A DNA stretch of 64,000 nt, taken from an uncultured Christensenella sp. Its GTDB lineage: Bacteria > Bacillota > Clostridia > Christensenellales > UBA1242. Each line of letters begins with the position of its first letter. Position 1 is the first letter of the stretch. The stretch lies in NCBI GenBank assembly GCA_964434145.1, contig CAYSUG010000001.1:22933-86932 (forward strand), given 5' to 3'. The position numbers and the translations under genes were made by a program. Below, piece after piece: positions 58,585-64,000 of the stretch. Below the pieces are notes generated by a model. The model was given only the letters and a program-made list of their open reading frames with translations, was not told where the DNA came from and did not search any database.

Positions 58585-59295
58585 ATGATCGGATTTGTTA
58601 TTGCTATGGAAAAAGAATGCAATGCCTTCTTAAATAAACTAAAAACAACTAAAGAATATGACTTCGCTGGTAAAAAATTCGTTAAGAGCGAGTTAGGTAG
58701 TAGCGAAATAATTGTAGGAATTGCAGGCATAGGCAAAGTTAATTCTGCAATGACAACCCAATTAATGATAGACAAATTTGCCCCAGAACTAATAATAAAT
58801 TTTGGCTTCGCTGGAGGCAAAGAAGGAAGTGGGTTAAAAGCTGGAGACATTGTGTTACTGGACAAAGTCTGTCAATACGATTTTGATTTAAGCGAAGTAG
58901 ATGATGTAAATATTGGATATATGCAAGACTATGACACCACATACTACAACACAGATTACTCGCTTTATAACGGAAATGCTTTTAAAATACGCACCGGTGC
59001 CACTGGCGACAGATTCACCAGCCAGAAATATTTTCTAGATATTATTCGGCAACTAAATGCACAAGTAGTAGATATGGAAGCTTGTGCAATTGCACAAGTA
59101 GTAGATATGGAAGCTTGTGCAATTGCACAAGTATGTCAAGCAAATGACATACCTGTTATAAGTATTAAATTAATCTCTGATGTAGATGGAATGGATGTAA
59201 ATATCTTTGAACAATACAAAGGCAACAGCAATGCAATAAACGATAAATTTGTACTCGCAATAACAGACCTAATGGACAACATAATAAACAATTAA
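58585..59295 (+). CDS. mtnN: 5'-methylthioadenosine/S-adenosylhomocysteine nucleosidase carrying an in-frame 33-bp tandem duplication
   Basis: Motifs GIGKVNSA, FGFAGG, GDRF and VDMEACAIAQV are present. The last motif is duplicated. Confidence 0.85.
   Translation: MIGFVIAMEKECNAFLNKLKTTKEYDFAGKKFVKSELGSSEIIVGIAGIGKVNSAMTTQLMIDKFAPELIINFGFAGGKEGSGLKAGDIVLLDKVCQYDFDLSEVDDVNIGYMQDYDTTYYNTDYSLYNGNAFKIRTGATGDRFTSQKYFLDIIRQLNAQVVDMEACAIAQVVDMEACAIAQVCQANDIPVISIKLISDVDGMDVNIFEQYKGNSNAINDKFVLAITDLMDNIINN
59065..59130 (+). repeat. perfect 33-bp tandem duplication inside mtnN
   Basis: GTAGTAGATATGGAAGCTTGTGCAATTGCACAA occurs at 59065-59097 and again at 59098-59130. Confidence 0.95.
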
Positions 59296-59980: not shown

Positions 59981-60008
59981 AAAAAAATAAACTCTGCGAA
60001 CGCAGAGC
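59981..60008 (-). terminator. terminator directly after the tRNA/tmRNA 3'-end fragment
   Basis: CTCTGC-GTTC-GCAGAG hairpin followed by TTTATTTTTTT on the minus strand. Confidence 0.7.
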
Positions 60009-60018
60009 TTATTGGATG

Positions 60019-60040
60019 TGGTGGAGATGACGGGATTTTA
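60019..60040 (-). repeat. orphan 3'-end fragment of a tRNA or tmRNA (att-like junction)
   Basis: The minus strand reads TAAAATCCCGTCATCTCCACCA: half a T-loop, the 3' acceptor strand, A73 and CCA. The upstream DNA has no matching 5' half. Confidence 0.6.
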
Positions 60041-60187
60041 ATATTAGATTATTTAACGCATAAAACACAATATATAGTGGTCTTTAGTTTGCTATTATAC
60101 CAAATATTGTTATTTTATTTTCTATTTTTTTCTAATATTAAATTTTTGTGACCACTTATGTGACCATTTTTTTTAGAATACAACAGG

Positions 60188-60724
60188 TTATTTTTTGTAT
60201 TCTTTACATTTCTTCTCCAAAAGTTTAAAGTCCACAACACAATCTAAATATTTACTATGTTCCGATACTTTATATTTTCCTATCTTTTGATTATAAATAA
60301 TATTTGCTTTTCTTACTATTTCCTTTCTATTTTTAGTAATAAAATCTAATTCTTTTATCACAAGAGTTTTGTAATTTAAATCTTTTTCATTGTTTGGATT
60401 TACTTTAGTTAATGCAATATCATTTATAGGTATCATATTACCCAAAAGTATTTTTCCCTTCATTTCATCTATATTCTTATCATTCTTTACTACTATTCTT
60501 GTTAAAAATATTGGGTCCTTTCGAATTGAGCCATCAGCATTAAAGTCCTTTTGCTTAGGACTAGATAATGGAGCAAAAAATTTACAATCATTTACTTGTA
60601 TTACTGCACCAATATACTTTCTAGCATGTTTTCTTTTTCCAATTTTGTTATCACTTACATGAGAATCAAATTTTCTCAAATATTGAATATAGTCATCATC
60701 AACATTATATAAATATATTTTCAT
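60188..60724 (-). CDS. type III toxin-antitoxin system toxin, ToxN/AbiQ-family endoribonuclease
   Basis: 178 aa from MKIYLYNVDDDYIQYLRKFDSHV. It matches my recollection of AbiQ/ToxN: F..V...YI.YL..FD..V, YIG.V......FFAPLSSPK, and a C-terminal C.VDF..LEKK. Confidence 0.8.
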   Translation of the reverse strand: MKIYLYNVDDDYIQYLRKFDSHVSDNKIGKRKHARKYIGAVIQVNDCKFFAPLSSPKQKDFNADGSIRKDPIFLTRIVVKNDKNIDEMKGKILLGNMIPINDIALTKVNPNNEKDLNYKTLVIKELDFITKNRKEIVRKANIIYNQKIGKYKVSEHSKYLDCVVDFKLLEKKCKEYKK

Positions 60725-60740
60725 AAAATTCTTCCTTTGA

Positions 60741-60776
60741 ATAAAAATGAGCAAGGCGACTTTTGCCCTGCTCATT
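60741..60776 (-). terminator. terminator between antitoxin repeats and toxin gene
   Basis: AATGAGCAGGGC-AAAAGT-CGCCTTGCTCATT hairpin followed by TTTTAT on the minus strand. Confidence 0.75.
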
Positions 60777-60780
60777 ACTT

Positions 60781-60875
60781 CCTTCTGAGGAGAGGAATTC
60801 CACCTTTTACAGTTTCCCACTAAGGTAGGGTTCTCCAATCATACAGTTTCCCACTAAGGTAGGGTTCTCCGCCAA
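60781..60875 (-). ncRNA. ToxI/antiQ-like antitoxin RNA: 34-nt tandem repeats (2 perfect cores plus a degenerate partial unit)
   Basis: TACAGTTTCCCACTAAGGTAGGGTTCTCC occurs at 60808-60836 and 60842-60870, a 34-nt period. A degenerate partial unit lies at 60781-60807. The position relative to promoter, terminator and toxin matches type III TA loci. Confidence 0.75.
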
Positions 60876-60895
60876 TATCACTATTGGTTACAAGT

Positions 60896-60924
60896 ATGAT
60901 ACATTTTTTTTACTTTAAAGTCAA
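60896..60924 (-). promoter_or_regulatory. promoter of the type III TA operon
   Basis: The minus strand reads TTGACT (60924-60919), 17 nt, TATCAT (60901-60896). A 14-bp palindrome AGTTTTGCAAAACT (60926-60939) abuts the -35. Confidence 0.55.
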
Positions 60925-61015
60925 TAGTTTTGCAAAACTTTTTTGTATCACATAATTATTATATTCTACCAATTAAAAATAATTCAATTTTTACTGACAG
61001 AATTTAACAAATATA

Positions 61016-64000
61016 TTAATACCCACTCATCTCAAACAACTTTTCTTTCTGACTTTTTGTTAGTTTTAGTCTATTAATATAAGACTTAACCTGTGTTTCG
61101 CCATACTTGTTTGTGTAACCAAGATACCCCATAATCATATACTTCTGTACTGCTGTAAGACCTAGACTATTGATGTATGATTGTATCTTTGCTTTTCTTG
61201 ATCCTGATATAGCTACACCTTTTTTATCTGTATCTGCTGTGTATATCTGTGCCTGAGATATAGCCATAGCCAATTGCTCAATTGGAATAGCCTCAGCAAA
61301 TAGAATTGTCTTGCTCTCCAAATCTTCTCCCAGCATATCCTCAATAGCAAGATTGTAGTAATAATTATAGATAAAAGTCATAGCCTTCGCTTTTGCTTCA
61401 TCATCAATCTTAGCAAAAGCTTTCAAGTTTACCATCTTCTTTACAGATTCGTTGGCTTGAGAATATATCTTTGTGAATTGTTTATGTTGTTTATCTGTTA
61501 AGGTATATTCCACCCCTTCATAAGTAATAGATTTATTTACTACTCTAGGTAGCACATCATAACCCTGCTCAATCAAATCTCTAGTCACTTCCATGACTTT
61601 ATCATCTTTGATTTTTCCTGTCCTACTATCAAACATAATATTTATTATTCTGTCAGCATATTCTTCATCTCCATTAGCAAGTGCTTTTTCTACTTTATCC
61701 AAATATGTTTGAGTACTCTTTGTCTTAAATAATGCTTCGTATTCTTCTTTTGTTGCAGGAGATATTTTTCCTATAATACCTTTTGTGTAACTCTCTAAAT
61801 TTTGTAAAGGTATACCAAATAGTTTGCTGGCATTTAGTATAGATTTTCTAGCAGAAGCTCTTAATTTAGTATCATCTTGATATCCACCATTAGCAAAAGT
61901 GTCGATTGACTCAACTGTATCTTTAACAATATTAAAAGTATTACTTAATGAAGTGTAAGCCATATTTGTTGGCTCATAACCAAGCATTAAGTTTGCTAAA
62001 TCGCCACCAAATGGAAGTAAGCCAACCAGATTAGCCATTGCTTCATTCCTAGCAACTTCGCTCCACTCCTCATCATCATCTTTACCTTTTAGCCATTTGA
62101 AAGCCATTGCAATCGCTAGTAACATTACCTGATTAAGAATAAATGCACTCTCAGTTTTTGCTAATCCTTTTTTAGAAGATGGTAATTCTTTTTGTGCATA
62201 TTGTGCTAATTCTAAATTGTCACACTTGCTCACTTTTTTTAATATATGATGCTTTCTTATTGCACTGCATTTTCTTCCTGCTAATTGTATACCATCTCCC
62301 CCAAACATTCTAAGAAATTTTATAAATTCATTATCGCTTCGCATCCACTCACTTCGACCTAATGCATCACTTGTCTGTTGAGTTGTAAATACAACCTCTG
62401 TCAATCTCTTACCAGCTTCAACTTTGTTTGCATCTGTGCCAAATTCTAATCCTTTTGTCTCTGCAACCTCATATTGAGCAGCAAACCATAATGATTGAAT
62501 AACATTACTATCCATCCAGGATATAGGTGTAGTTGTTAGTTTATTTAAGCCATCAGTAGCCTTTGCAATTACTTTGTGAGATCTTCCACCAATTTCTTTT
62601 CCAATTTGCCTTATATCTTGTACATCTACACTACTTCCAACTAAATTTCTCTCCCACATAAGAGGTGCATATTTAGCCATCTCTATTTTTTCTTTTTCTC
62701 CAAAGAAATGCTTCATTCCTTTAACAATGTACTTAGGATTGAATTCTGTTTGTGCAGATGCAAGAGATAATGTCTGAGTTAATAATACTTTAGGATTTAA
62801 GCCTAATGCAGAATTGGCTGTAGCCCATCTAATTCTACTCATTAGTTTACCAAAAAACTTATCTACTGATTTAAGGTTTTTAGTATTAAGTCCTTGTACA
62901 TCTAGCCACAATTTATCCATATATCCTTTAAATCCAGAATCTATTTTGCCTGCAGCACTATGCATATTTATACCAGAACCATTTTCTAACACAACTTTTC
63001 TATTCATTATCTTGTTGTATGCATTTAATGGCAACGCATATCCTACATATAAGGACATTTTTCTTATATGTTCTGCAAGAATATTATCTACACCATCAAT
63101 AACAATCATATTGCTAGAATTAGGTTTTACAGTTTTATTAAATCCAAAATTTAAAACAGATTGGTTTATATTACCTTTATCTGTTGTCTCCTGAAAAAGT
63201 TCATCGCTAGATACTTCTAATGGGAAGTAATCTCTATCTTCTACATTAGAGACTCCATACAAAGCAATATCTACTTCTTGTTTTGCTTTTCGAGAATTCT
63301 CATTAAAGAAAGTTTTAACTAAATCTATATATTCTCTATCTGCCTGTGTAAATTGTTTTTCAATATTGCTTAACATTTCTTCGGTAACTTTAATTTCTAC
63401 ACCTTTATCAAGTGCTTTTTTCATCTTTCCACGAGTTGAAAATTTATTATCCAACAACTTAACAATGCCCTCATCACCATCAACACCAAATATATGACTT
63501 CTACCCTGAGGTCTTAGTGATGTTAAGTATAGAGATAATGCTTGTCTTTTATGAAGTGTAATATCTTCATATCCATTATTAATAACCATTTGTTCTTGTA
63601 GAACATTGTTATAATTCTTATTTCTTTTATAGAAGTCATCAAATAACATATTGGCTTCCATGACAAACTTGGCTCTTTTAGAATCTCCATTAACCATATC
63701 TCTATATATTTGCATCATTACAGAGTTTTCTCTGTACAATCCCATTTCAGCCATTCTATCTTTAGGATTAATAAATATATGCTTAATTCCTTTAATAATA
63801 TAGTTAAAAAACCTAACAAATATATTTGAGTCCGGACTCTTTAAGAATGGTTCAGCCTCAAGAGTTTCCTTAACACCTTGTTCAGCGATTTTATCTATCT
63901 CAACCTTTTCGCCATTAAAGCTAACTAAATTATAATTTTGTAAAACATGCATAAAGTTCCTAAGAACATTAGAGATATCAAGAATTTCTTCCGTTGTAAA
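61016..64000 (-). CDS. very large phage/mobile-element protein (partial; open beyond the window edge)
   Basis: The 978-aa track ORF stays open upstream of its first Met as far as position 64000. Composition and C-terminal segments (e.g. SGSRKAKIQSYINSLGLTAVQKYMIMGYLGY) resemble large virion/polyvalent proteins. The family was not verified. Confidence 0.5.
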   Translation of the reverse strand, partial: FTTEEILDISNVLRNFMHVLQNYNLVSFNGEKVEIDKIAEQGVKETLEAEPFLKSPDSNIFVRFFNYIIKGIKHIFINPKDRMAEMGLYRENSVMMQIYRDMVNGDSKRAKFVMEANMLFDDFYKRNKNYNNVLQEQMVINNGYEDITLHKRQALSLYLTSLRPQGRSHIFGVDGDEGIVKLLDNKFSTRGKMKKALDKGVEIKVTEEMLSNIEKQFTQADREYIDLVKTFFNENSRKAKQEVDIALYGVSNVEDRDYFPLEVSSDELFQETTDKGNINQSVLNFGFNKTVKPNSSNMIVIDGVDNILAEHIRKMSLYVGYALPLNAYNKIMNRKVVLENGSGINMHSAAGKIDSGFKGYMDKLWLDVQGLNTKNLKSVDKFFGKLMSRIRWATANSALGLNPKVLLTQTLSLASAQTEFNPKYIVKGMKHFFGEKEKIEMAKYAPLMWERNLVGSSVDVQDIRQIGKEIGGRSHKVIAKATDGLNKLTTTPISWMDSNVIQSLWFAAQYEVAETKGLEFGTDANKVEAGKRLTEVVFTTQQTSDALGRSEWMRSDNEFIKFLRMFGGDGIQLAGRKCSAIRKHHILKKVSKCDNLELAQYAQKELPSSKKGLAKTESAFILNQVMLLAIAMAFKWLKGKDDDEEWSEVARNEAMANLVGLLPFGGDLANLMLGYEPTNMAYTSLSNTFNIVKDTVESIDTFANGGYQDDTKLRASARKSILNASKLFGIPLQNLESYTKGIIGKISPATKEEYEALFKTKSTQTYLDKVEKALANGDEEYADRIINIMFDSRTGKIKDDKVMEVTRDLIEQGYDVLPRVVNKSITYEGVEYTLTDKQHKQFTKIYSQANESVKKMVNLKAFAKIDDEAKAKAMTFIYNYYYNLAIEDMLGEDLESKTILFAEAIPIEQLAMAISQAQIYTADTDKKGVAISGSRKAKIQSYINSLGLTAVQKYMIMGYLGYTNKYGETQVKSYINRLKLTKSQKEKLFEMSGY

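Follow-up and report, generated by a model that had tools for sequence, protein, structure and literature searches.

An approximately 800-bp cassette on the minus strand (60999..60188) of the window, by which we mean the whole 64,000-nucleotide stretch of DNA that was analysed, is in our judgement a self-contained type III toxin-antitoxin cassette of the toxIN family, in which the antitoxin is the repeat RNA, and we put the probability of this reading at roughly 0.88. The cassette carries, in this order, a promoter, a 5' hairpin, repeats, a terminator, a ribosome-binding site and an ORF of 178 amino acids (Table 1). A full type III layout had been claimed in a first-pass annotation of this DNA, and all the claimed features were found on the minus strand, either where they had been placed or a few bases off. 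The succession of repeats, terminator and toxin fits the published locus criteria, which include a Rho-independent terminator between the repeats and the toxin gene, an upstream promoter being preferred and not strictly required (PMC3401426); arrays of the toxIN family range over repeats of 31-62 nt in 1.9-5.6 copies (PMC3401426 Table 2). Homology of the cassette to other loci starts at about 60999-60966 and ends at the toxN stop codon (60188). The repeats upstream of toxN most likely encode the RNA antidote of the toxin. The locus is an ordinary member of the ToxIN/AbiQ family, genuine but of a known type, and leaves the knowledge of type III systems unchanged. Its anatomy, the family and fold of the toxin, the conservation and covariation of the RNA, leader hairpin and terminator, and the occurrence of the cassette in unrelated contexts were all computed here.

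Table 1. Features of the toxIN locus, with positions in the window
Feature	Position	Strand	Remarks
P1, promoter-like site TTGAAT-18-TATAAT	60958..60987	-	consensus matches 10/12
TGATAC box	60950..60945	-	with P1, conserved 5' edge of the cassette
14-bp perfect palindrome AGTTTTGCAAAACT	60939..60926	none	one base upstream of the -35; A-run alongside
P2, predicted toxIN promoter TTGACT-17-TATCAT	60924..60896	-	consensus matches 10/12
5' leader hairpin CCAATAGTGATATTGG, CCAATA-GTGA-TATTGG	60887..60872	-	-5.4 kcal/mol, z -4.3
toxI unit 1, 34 nt, GGAGAACCCUACCUUAGUGGGAAACUGUAUGAUU	60837..60870	-	H-type pseudoknot predicted, stem 1 GG(A)/(A)CC, stem 2 CCC/GGG
toxI unit 2, 35 nt	60802..60836	-	29-nt core same as unit 1, then AAAAGGU
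toxI unit 3, divergent, GGA-A-UUCCU-C-UCC-UCAGA-AGGAA	60774..60801	-	continues directly into the terminator stem
Intrinsic terminator, toxI/toxN boundary	60776..60741	-	stem 60776..60746, 12 pairs and T-run; -19 kcal/mol, z -5.7
RBS AAGGAAG	60737..60731	-	6 nt ahead of the ATG
toxN, 178-aa ToxN/AbiQ-family endoribonuclease toxin	60724..60188, stop codon included	-	Pfam, PADLOC, predicted fold
216-aa ORF	60838..60188	-	begins at TTG within repeat unit 2
Strong intrinsic terminator downstream of toxN	59986..60013	-	-15.4 kcal/mol, z -6.8

The ToxN/AbiQ identity of the 178-aa protein, for which an HMM search had been proposed as the check, was confirmed by profile searches. The protein matched the Pfam model PF13958 (ToxN_toxin) with an E-value of 1.8e-36 and 126.2 bits against a cutoff of 25, over residues 5-176 of 178, and AbiQ gave the strongest match among the defence-system models of PADLOC (E 9.6e-40), while no NCBIfam model matched the toxin. 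Solved structures matched by sequence were 4ATO (5.1e-16), 4GLK (1.4e-14), 2XD0 (1e-12) and 7D8O (3e-12), and the same four headed the Foldseek results for an AlphaFold2 model of the toxin (pLDDT 89.3, pTM 0.84), with TM values of 0.73-0.82 and a probability of 1.00. The best of these was 4ATO, the B. thuringiensis ToxN (TM 0.78/0.82). The model suggests that the toxin has the ToxN fold. CptIN (PDB 4RMO) and TenpIN work on the same type III principle, and their likeness in fold is distant (TM 0.52-0.59, with CptN at 0.52); they have other toxin families and repeats of 40-57 nt (PMC3401426), and the CptIN complex is a heterotetramer (PMC5086642). With ToxN_toxin as the sole Pfam match and a repeat of 34 nt, the locus falls outside the cptIN and tenpIN families.

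The active-site residues of ToxN_Pa are Y29, K33, T52, S53 and K55 (PMC5086642), and the residues aligned to them in the window, R31, R35, S54, S55 and K57, are invariant in 24 of 24 homologs. Compared with ToxN_Pa, three of the five residues are identical or conservatively replaced, the change of K33 to R is also conservative and that of Y29 to R is not, and ToxN_Bt also differs at the Y29 position. The motif S54-S55-P56-K57 and R35, which line up with T52, S53, K55 and K33 of ToxN_Pa, are likewise invariant in the 24 homologs. The dN/dS of toxN is 0.045-0.07. Truncated copies do occur elsewhere, such as L002, which has only toxin residues 104-177 and lacks toxI, and one might consider from this that the locus in the window is a decaying, non-functional remnant. 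We regard this as very unlikely, given that every part is intact in the window, with perfect repeat cores, an invariant active-site motif and dN/dS values of 0.05-0.07.

A longer form of the toxin gene is suggested by the 216-aa ORF, and if this were a true gene the repeats would be coding for an N-terminal extension (LENPTLVGNCKRW...). In the window the reading frame is in fact open from the TTG at 60838, and homologous locus L043 has a corresponding open frame. However, an in-frame stop lies 2-27 codons before the ATG in 8 of the 10 homologous loci, all 24 homologs (24/24) begin with MK(I/L), the Pfam match opens at residue 5 of the 178-aa form, and the supposed extension contains the 12-pair terminator and the RBS. 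The form on record in NCBI-derived data is also an identical protein of 178 residues. We therefore give the longer gene almost no credence, and the earlier description of this ORF as an artefact is upheld by the in-frame stops. It had also been said that an annotation based only on ORFs would miss the antitoxin, and this holds, the RNA being either overlooked or absorbed into the false 216-aa ORF.

Using a direct-repeat search, we found two 29-nt cores (60870-60842 and 60836-60808) that are 100% identical and spaced 34 nt apart, in agreement with the two perfect repeats at a 34-nt period that had been described. The core pattern was never matched in 100 shuffles and has no additional copy in the 64-kb window. 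A covariance model trained on the window's units and on related units had unit 3 as its sole further match in the window (60771-60801, E 0.055), which is partly by construction; the same model recovers toxI arrays in loci left out of training. The third unit had been described as degenerate and partial. A divergent unit is indeed present, but the pairing of the pseudoknot is compensated, which makes it by prediction a structurally compensated pseudoknot unit and not a relic: across nine loci its stem 2 reads UUCCU/AGGAA, CUCC/GGAG, GCCC/GGGC, UCCCU/AGGGA or AUCCU/AGGAU.

Units 1 and 2 are 92-100% identical to the units of eight homologous loci with the same two-plus-one layout, although in those loci the DNA identity of toxN is only 72-79% and synonymous sites are saturated (dS>2). 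For three loci at a greater distance, identity is 79-89% in the units as against 64-70% in toxN. By these comparisons the repeats are constrained more strongly than the toxin gene. The number of full units differs between near-identical contigs (2 in L043 and 1 in L044), and units within one locus usually carry the same variant, which fits a tandem array. The repeats had no match to any Rfam 15 family at E<=10, a null result that weighs little because ToxI sequences diverge strongly between loci, and the repeat sequence was not found in the papers searched. Matches in Rfam at a relaxed threshold (uup, SNORA71, ES239, STnc250) were at chance level and overlapped the terminators, and were discarded.

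The repeat unit is predicted to form an H-type pseudoknot on the ToxI template, for which stems of 3-4 nt and loops of 3-4, 1-2 and at most 7 nt were taken; the loops predicted for the unit, of 3, 1 and 5 nt, agree with the Group I ToxI template as published. Because MAFFT misregistered the stems when applied to the raw units, an N-padded alignment (A3) was fitted to the structure by hand and then cross-checked with the covariance model. In the hand alignment 83.6% of cells were paired compared with 73.0% in shuffled alignments, where no shuffle out of 500 was as high, and with 42-57% in slid controls; 7 of the 8 pseudoknot pairs were changed on both sides. The outcome was the same (83.1% versus 73.1%) when the alignment came from the covariance model, which had been built with stem 1 left unpaired. 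Stem 2 is in this way well supported by covariation. Two of the stem 1 pairs are invariant G-C; the third is A.A in units 1 and 2 of the window and standard in only 15 of 34 distinct units, and the case for this putative stem rests mostly on those invariant pairs and on homology to ToxI_Bt. A nested-fold energy model found no excess stability in a single unit (z -0.27).

The repeats lie in the 5' leader, immediately ahead of a terminator, and nested folding predicts alternative pairings between units. Perhaps their role is confined to cis, as a leader or attenuator tuning the transcription of toxN, with no antitoxin acting in trans and any neutralisation coming from elsewhere. The inter-unit pairings given by RNAalifold, which cannot represent pseudoknots, were set aside as uninformative, since these pairs never vary and so lend no support to such a leader. 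Covariation instead backs the stems internal to the pseudoknot units, the sequence and period of the repeats are common to ToxI_Bt, whose complex with ToxN is solved, and a leader would need neither identical tandem units nor variation in copy number. A purely cis-acting leader thus seems highly improbable to us, and we retain the RNA antitoxin as our reading of the repeats.

Consensus promoter matches are not unusual in this AT-rich region (10 observed versus 8.5 expected). The predicted promoter P2 upstream of the repeats, which the first-pass annotation had proposed, is nevertheless credible because the -35 with its exact 17-nt spacer recurs in the homologous loci: TTGAC[A/T], the spacer and a -10 of the TAnnAT type were present in 11 of 11, including those with toxins only 56-60% identical. 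Upstream of it, the sequence ATATAATA...TGATAC is kept in at least 9 of the 12 aligned loci. A sigma-54 site upstream of P1 was considered and dropped, as the TGGCA-N-TTGCA motif matches the sigma-54 consensus in L001 only and the window has TGTCAG...TTGAAT. The palindrome reported to abut the -35 is present, but it is conserved only in part, being exact or near-exact in L001, L037, L043 and L004 and reduced to a T-run/A-run character in L039, L042, L045, L047 and L050; it looks more like an A-tract/T-tract/A-tract UP-like element than an operator.

The small hairpin that had been noted after the promoter was also found, right where the predicted transcript begins. Across nine loci each of its six pairs varies on both sides while pairing is kept in 100% of cells, compared with 15-56% in slid controls; it is missing from L048, L005 and ToxI_Bt. 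Between the repeats and the toxin gene, the strong terminator that had been described proved to be conserved in structure, with a hairpin and T-run at the same position in every homologous locus and a different sequence each time. It presumably sets the ratio of RNA to toxin via partial read-through. GGAG or AGGA motifs occur in the homologs at the position of the RBS. The downstream terminator lies 175 nt past the toxN stop codon, outside the conserved cassette, and is where the operon transcript probably ends.

Of the characterised systems, the one closest to the window's locus in protein as well as RNA is ToxIN_Bt of the Bacillus thuringiensis plasmid pAW63 (34 nt x 2.9), and not antiQ, to which the array had earlier been likened. 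The ToxN of this system (PDB 4ATO) was the best match to the window toxin both in sequence among solved structures and in fold, the order of promoter, repeats, terminator and toxin is the same, and the 34-nt period is shared, with about 2.9 copies in ToxIN_Bt and two plus one divergent in the window (PMC5086642). From the pAW63 record, the ToxI_Bt unit AAAUU-GGUGUAA-CUC-UACC-GUAGU-GAG-UACCAAA aligns with UGAUU-GGAGAA-CCC-UACC-UUAGU-GGG-AAACUGUA of the window, the two having in common the RNA core GGWG-AA-YYY-UACC-KUAGU-RRR, of which the flanking triplets covary within one array. However, the toxin is only 28% identical to ToxN_Bt, loop 1a-2a is 1 nt shorter in the window, and the unit tails are AAACUGUA/UGAUU in place of UACCAAA/AAAUU, so that the AAA^AA cut site is absent between units 1 and 2. 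Neither the 5' leader hairpin nor the conserved upstream box of the window's clade is present in pAW63, the third unit in the window abuts the terminator, and the locus is chromosomal whereas a conjugative plasmid carries ToxIN_Bt.

AbiQ/antiQ of Lactococcus lactis pSRQ900 (PDB 4GLK) also has a Firmicute host, the same layout and a short array of 2.8 x 35 nt (PMC5086642), but its matches are weaker than those of ToxN_Bt (slightly so in sequence, 1.4e-14 versus 5.1e-16; Foldseek E 2.8e-09 versus 1.2e-12), the comparison with antiQ being by array figures only. ToxIN_Pa of Pectobacterium atrosepticum pECA1039 (2XD0/2XDD) and ToxIN_Ec (7D8O) share the fold (TM 0.73-0.82), the (T/S)-S-P-K motif and the pseudoknot loop pattern with AGU before stem 2b, and differ in having 36-nt units x 5.5, toxins about 24% identical to that of the window, Gram-negative hosts and plasmid loci. 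In the phage collection, the nearest of the annotated relatives comes from Fusobacterium phage phiFN37 (OR492271.1). This ToxN, 44% identical and labelled a type III ToxN/AbiQ family toxin, adjoins head and neck genes in a bona fide phage and has repeats upstream of the gene that differ from those of the window in sequence and length.

The locus had been taken as cargo of a phage-like element, and this could not be established. Its sole neighbour on the side of the phage block is a 978-aa ORF, the C-terminal portion of a giant hypothetical protein that is itself rare. This ORF had no Pfam domain, only weak PHROG matches of unknown function, no resemblance to the minor head protein of phiFN37, and a single match, 24% identical, to an unannotated 'Bacteriophage sp.' contig. 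Its homologs are hypothetical proteins of 835-1683 aa, one of which lies between core metabolic genes and a group made up of rve integrase, helicase and HNH genes; these neighbours suggest a mobile element, without proving a phage. The same cassette occurs elsewhere in unrelated contexts. At the DNA level the locus had no match in the phage and plasmid collections, and protein-pattern and toxI-pattern scans of the IMG/VR viral contigs found nothing, whether a copy or a mimic of the toxI unit. Close homologs came from exact-protein look-ups; a scan of genome contigs gave two loci only, and a metagenome scan mostly distant relatives of at most 56% identity.

From what is known of the family, the cassette would work as follows. 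Transcription would begin at the conserved TTGACT-17-TATCAT promoter and yield an RNA of about 150 nt, with the 5' hairpin first, then two identical pseudoknot units and a divergent third, and last the terminator hairpin. Most transcripts would stop at this terminator, and a minority would read through to give the 178-aa ToxN endoribonuclease. The toxin would then cut the repeat RNA between units, and the pseudoknot units would keep it bound in a closed ribonucleoprotein without activity, whose stoichiometry is probably the 3:3 of ToxIN_Bt. If the supply of toxI dropped, because a phage shut down host transcription or because the element was lost, free ToxN would cleave cellular and phage RNAs and the cell would arrest. 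Processing, stoichiometry, toxicity, neutralisation and any role in phage defence by abortive infection or in addiction are all read across from relatives. In the register of ToxI_Bt the cuts would fall after a conserved CUGUA (60842/60841 and 60808/60807), with GGGAA^AC (60848/60847 and 60814/60813) as an alternative. Characterised ToxN enzymes cut A-runs (AA^AU, GAA^AU, AAA^AA; PMC8860590), those of ToxIN_Pa and ToxIN_Ec at AA^AU or GAA^AU (PMC8860590), and because the interunit CUGUA/UGAUU is no A-run, the exact site is uncertain and CUGUA^W may be offered only from the register.

A role in abortive infection is suggested by the family, since relatives of the cassette are Abi systems (PMC5086642, PMC5772629). 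It is also possible, though we think it somewhat unlikely, that this genuine type III system serves mainly in addiction, stabilising a mobile element by post-segregational killing, over phage defence. ToxIN_Pa and ToxIN_Bt stabilise plasmids (PMC5772629, PMC5086642), homologous cassettes lie beside TraG/FtsK-like conjugation genes (L004) and an integrase (L048), the cassette edges are sharp with flanks unrelated among loci, and the IMG/VR scans gave no toxI unit copy or mimic. However, the family was first discovered as abortive-infection systems, and a ToxN of 44% identity is carried by phiFN37. The two roles are compatible rather than exclusive, and the sequence favours neither.

More speculatively, the Clostridia toxIN clade might be a regulatory variant, in which exactly three non-equivalent ToxN-binding units on each transcript would allow a closed 3:3 complex to assemble in cis. 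This doubtful idea builds on three additions absent from ToxIN_Bt, namely the covarying 5' hairpin, the P1/TGATAC box with its A/T tracts and the third unit fused to the terminator. Were it true, unit 1 would be capped by the 5' hairpin, unit 2 freely released and unit 3 tethered to the terminator, and the stability or triggering of the complex would be unlike that of known ToxIN systems.

The antitoxin is an unannotated RNA of a kind overlooked by protein-only gene finders, and even a repeat search may pass over it. Tandem Repeats Finder, the tool of the reference type III survey (PMC3401426), did not report the array when applied to 60000-61200 with a minimum score of 30, and since it missed this array of two copies, toxIN loci with short arrays have probably been under-counted in gut Clostridia. 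The present locus adds a well-supported ToxI clade of about 12 loci with natural covariation, and the compensated units within its arrays could guide mutagenesis of ToxI-ToxN specificity.

All parts of the type III toxin-antitoxin layout claimed by the first-pass annotation were found on the minus strand. The 178-aa protein, which had been assigned to ToxN/AbiQ, was searched by HMM and matched Pfam ToxN_toxin along its full length (E 1.8e-36; 126 bits versus a cutoff of 25) and the PADLOC AbiQ model (E 9.6e-40), confirming its membership, with no matching model in the NCBIfam profile search. Among solved structures, its sequence matched ToxN_Bt from Bacillus thuringiensis (4ATO, 5e-16), AbiQ from Lactococcus lactis (4GLK, 1e-14), ToxN_Pa from Pectobacterium atrosepticum (2XD0, 1e-12) and ToxN_Ec (7D8O, 3e-12). 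An AlphaFold2 model with 24 homologs as input (pLDDT 89.3) superposed best on 4ATO (TM 0.78/0.82), followed by 2XD0, 7D8O and 4GLK, and CptN was a much weaker fold match. The active-site residues Y29, K33, T52, S53 and K55 of ToxN_Pa (PMC5086642) align with R31, R35, S54, S55 and K57, which are invariant across the 24 homologs. Compared with three equal-length homologs, toxN has a dN/dS of 0.045-0.07 with dS saturated (>2), and NCBI-derived data hold the identical 178-aa sequence. The locus is a toxIN-family type III toxin-antitoxin cassette, as had been correctly identified; it belongs to an already known family, and its nearest known system is ToxIN_Bt of plasmid pAW63.

Features of the toxIN cassette and the adjoining giant ORF, in window positions
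Feature	Position	Strand	Remarks
Giant ORF, C-terminal 978 aa	61016-64000	-	frame open up to window edge
P1-like TTGAAT-18-TATAAT and TGATAC box	P1 60987..60958; conserved 5' edge of cassette 60944-60999	-	at least 9 of 12 homologous loci
14-bp palindrome AGTTTTGCAAAACT	60939..60926		
P2, promoter-like TTGACT-17-TATCAT	60924..60896	-	consensus match
5' hairpin CCAATAGTGATATTGG	60887..60872	-	-5.4 kcal/mol, z -4.3
Repeat units 1 and 2	60870-60842, 60836-60808	-	two 29-nt copies, 100% identical, 34 nt apart
Unit 3, divergent	60801..60774	-	
Terminator	60776..60746	-	12 pairs, then T-run; -19 kcal/mol, z -5.7
toxN, 178-aa ORF preceded by RBS	60724..60188	-	

A 216-aa ORF extending toxN across the terminator and repeats had been regarded as an artefact, and the homologs agree: the extension is open in the window and locus L043 only, 8 of 10 homologous loci have a stop 2-27 codons before the toxN ATG, and all toxN homologs start at MK(I/L).

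The repeat core has no further copies in the window and none in 100 shuffles, the array went unreported by Tandem Repeats Finder, and no Rfam family matches the repeats. Upstream DNA was taken from loci whose toxins are 56-87% identical, in one Clostridia MAG and metagenome contigs, and all of these share the layout and the unit GGWGAACCCUACCUNAGUGGGAAACUKUA. Between the window and eight loci of the two-plus-one unit layout, units 1-2 (63-nt span) are 92-100% identical versus 72-79% for toxN DNA; for three more distant loci the values are 79-89% and 64-70%. With toxN synonymous sites saturated, such identity in non-coding DNA indicates strong purifying selection. Full units 1 and 2 usually carry one variant per locus (CCUCAG in L037, GGUG in L039, CCUAAG in L050), and the near-identical contigs L043 (1823-2020) and L044 (1745-1942), from two samples, are exactly one 34-nt unit apart (two versus one full), so the antitoxin array varies naturally in copy number. 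Both observations are typical of concerted evolution in a tandem array.

The toxI_Bt sequence was read from pAW63. One unit is AAAUU-GGUGUAA-CUC-UACC-GUAGU-GAG-UACCAAA, its other two units carrying CCU/AGG, and the window unit is UGAUU-GGAGAA-CCC-UACC-UUAGU-GGG-AAACUGUA; common to both are the 34-nt period, the UACC-KUAGU core and covarying flanking triplets. The window unit can be parsed as an H-type pseudoknot with predicted stems GG(A)/(A)CC and CCC/GGG, loop lengths of 3, 1 and 5 nt and an AGU ahead of stem 2b, in agreement with the Group I ToxI template (Blower et al. 2012, PMC3401426). In a hand alignment of 19 distinct units from the window clade and Bt, 83.6% of cells were paired, compared with 73.0% after shuffling (0 of 500 shuffles reached the observed value) and 42-57% when slid; both-sided change occurred in 7 of 8 pairs, with a covariation score of 0.357 versus 0.169. 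Since this alignment had been fitted to the proposed structure, a covariance model encoding stem 2 alone was built and 171 kb were searched. The model found exactly three units and nothing else in the window, also recovered the toxI arrays of L006, L008, L011, L021, L023-L025, L027 and L028, loci outside its training set, and aligned 35 distinct units with 83.1% of cells paired (shuffled 73.1%, reached by 0 of 500; slid 37-60%). Stem 2 of the predicted pseudoknot is well supported, its innermost pair being CG in 20 units and UA in 11, and stem 1 is based on two invariant G-C pairs, with A.A as the third pair in the window's own full units. A nested energy model gave no excess stability for a single unit, which is unsurprising for a small protein-stabilised pseudoknot.

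Units 1 and 2 had been described as followed by a degenerate partial unit. The divergent unit is there, GGA-A-UUCCU-C-UCC-UCAGA-AGGAA, and its stem 1 has three Watson-Crick pairs, its stem 2 five; in other loci stem 2 is CUCC/GGAG, GCCC/GGGC, UCCCU/AGGGA or AUCCU/AGGAU. It is not a decaying copy, and ToxI_Bt has the same within-array compensation. For these reasons the array is best described as three putative pseudoknot units, the final one abutting the terminator. More distant toxins (35-46% identical; L007, L009, L010, L019, L026, L027) come with repeats of 35-39 nt built on this pseudoknot template, in which both stems have been exchanged in full (for example GGGA/UCCC versus GGGG/CCCC and CUCC/GGAG versus UUCC/GGAA), sometimes between units of a single array. 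These loci would be well suited to building a broad ToxI covariance model. The locus is of value for annotation and for a well-populated ToxI clade that shows natural covariation, rather than for new biology.

The terminator keeps its structure in every homologous locus while its sequence differs. All six pairs of the 5' hairpin change on both sides across nine loci, with 100% of cells paired, and the hairpin is absent in L048, L005 and pAW63; a reasonable guess is that such a 5'-terminal stem would shield the RNA, in Firmicutes, from 5'-end-dependent decay. In DNA this rich in AT, consensus promoter matches are frequent (10 found versus 8.5 expected in the region), so P2 is a credible promoter only because its -35 TTGAC[A/T] and exact 17-nt spacer are conserved in 11 of 11 loci. 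The exact palindrome upstream of P2 is retained in some loci only, and the part that is kept, a succession of A-run, T-run and A-run, resembles an UP element, going by the UP consensus, more than an operator. P1 with the TGATAC box may represent a tandem promoter or the site of a regulator.

If the locus works as ToxIN_Pa, ToxIN_Bt and ToxIN_Ec do (PMC3401426, PMC5086642, PMC5772629, PMC8860590), P2 would likely drive a leader-toxI transcript, most copies of which stop at the terminator, and read-through would yield ToxN. The toxin would then probably cut the precursor between units and stay bound to the products as a closed inactive complex, the RNase being set free when fresh toxI is lost. 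Characterised ToxN enzymes cut between adenines, at AA^AU, GAA^AU and AAA^AA (PMC8860590). The ToxI_Bt register (5-nt 5' tail, 7-8-nt 3' tail) would place the cut after the conserved CUGUA, giving CUGUA^UGAUU at the end of unit 1 and CUGUA^AAAGGU at the end of unit 2; the alternative predicted site is the conserved GGGAA^AC.

Homology to other loci begins at about 60999-60966 and stops precisely at the toxN stop codon (60188), and this confinement points to a cassette of ~800 bp as the unit of inheritance. Its flanks are unrelated among loci and include TraG/FtsK-like and AAA_14 genes in L004, an ABC transporter in L042, DUF1538 in L043, and integrase and HTH genes in L048. In the window the cassette sits between housekeeping genes (dnaK, grpE, hrcA, Fe-ADH, YhhN and a PNP-family gene) and the giant ORF, whose protein has no Pfam domain, PHROG matches of unknown function (including PHROG 22978) and one 24%-identical match on an unannotated phage contig. 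Its few homologs are hypothetical proteins of 835-1683 aa with no Pfam domain, in only 6 clusters at 90% identity among about 5.8 billion; one, at a site lacking toxIN, has an rve integrase, a helicase and an HNH gene as neighbours. Because the flanks are unrelated and the giant ORF lacks a clear phage identity, the earlier view of the cassette as cargo of a phage-like element is possible and not established. Fusobacterium phage phiFN37 carries a 44%-identical ToxN, and family members occur on hundreds of plasmids.

A truncated toxN in a Clostridia MAG (L002, 6001-6222; residues 104-177 only, 72% identical, no toxI, beside a Spo0A-like gene) is a decayed cassette copy. Outside the conserved cassette, the stretch of 200 nt that separates the toxN stop codon from a strong terminator at 60013..59986 (59986-60187, minus strand) holds TGGTCAC as a direct repeat and, near 60100, an extended -10-like TTTGGTATAAT, which could drive an RNA of roughly 100 nt ending at that terminator. 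Positions 1-20 of L050 are a Nextera adapter, AGATGTGTATAAGAGACAG, left untrimmed in the public assembly. The PNP/MTA-nucleosidase-like ORF 58585..59295 contains a 33-nt tandem duplication, perfect and in frame (59058-59133, plus strand; 2.3 copies, TRF score 152), which repeats the peptide AQVVDMEACAI and could be a real recent event or an assembly artefact.
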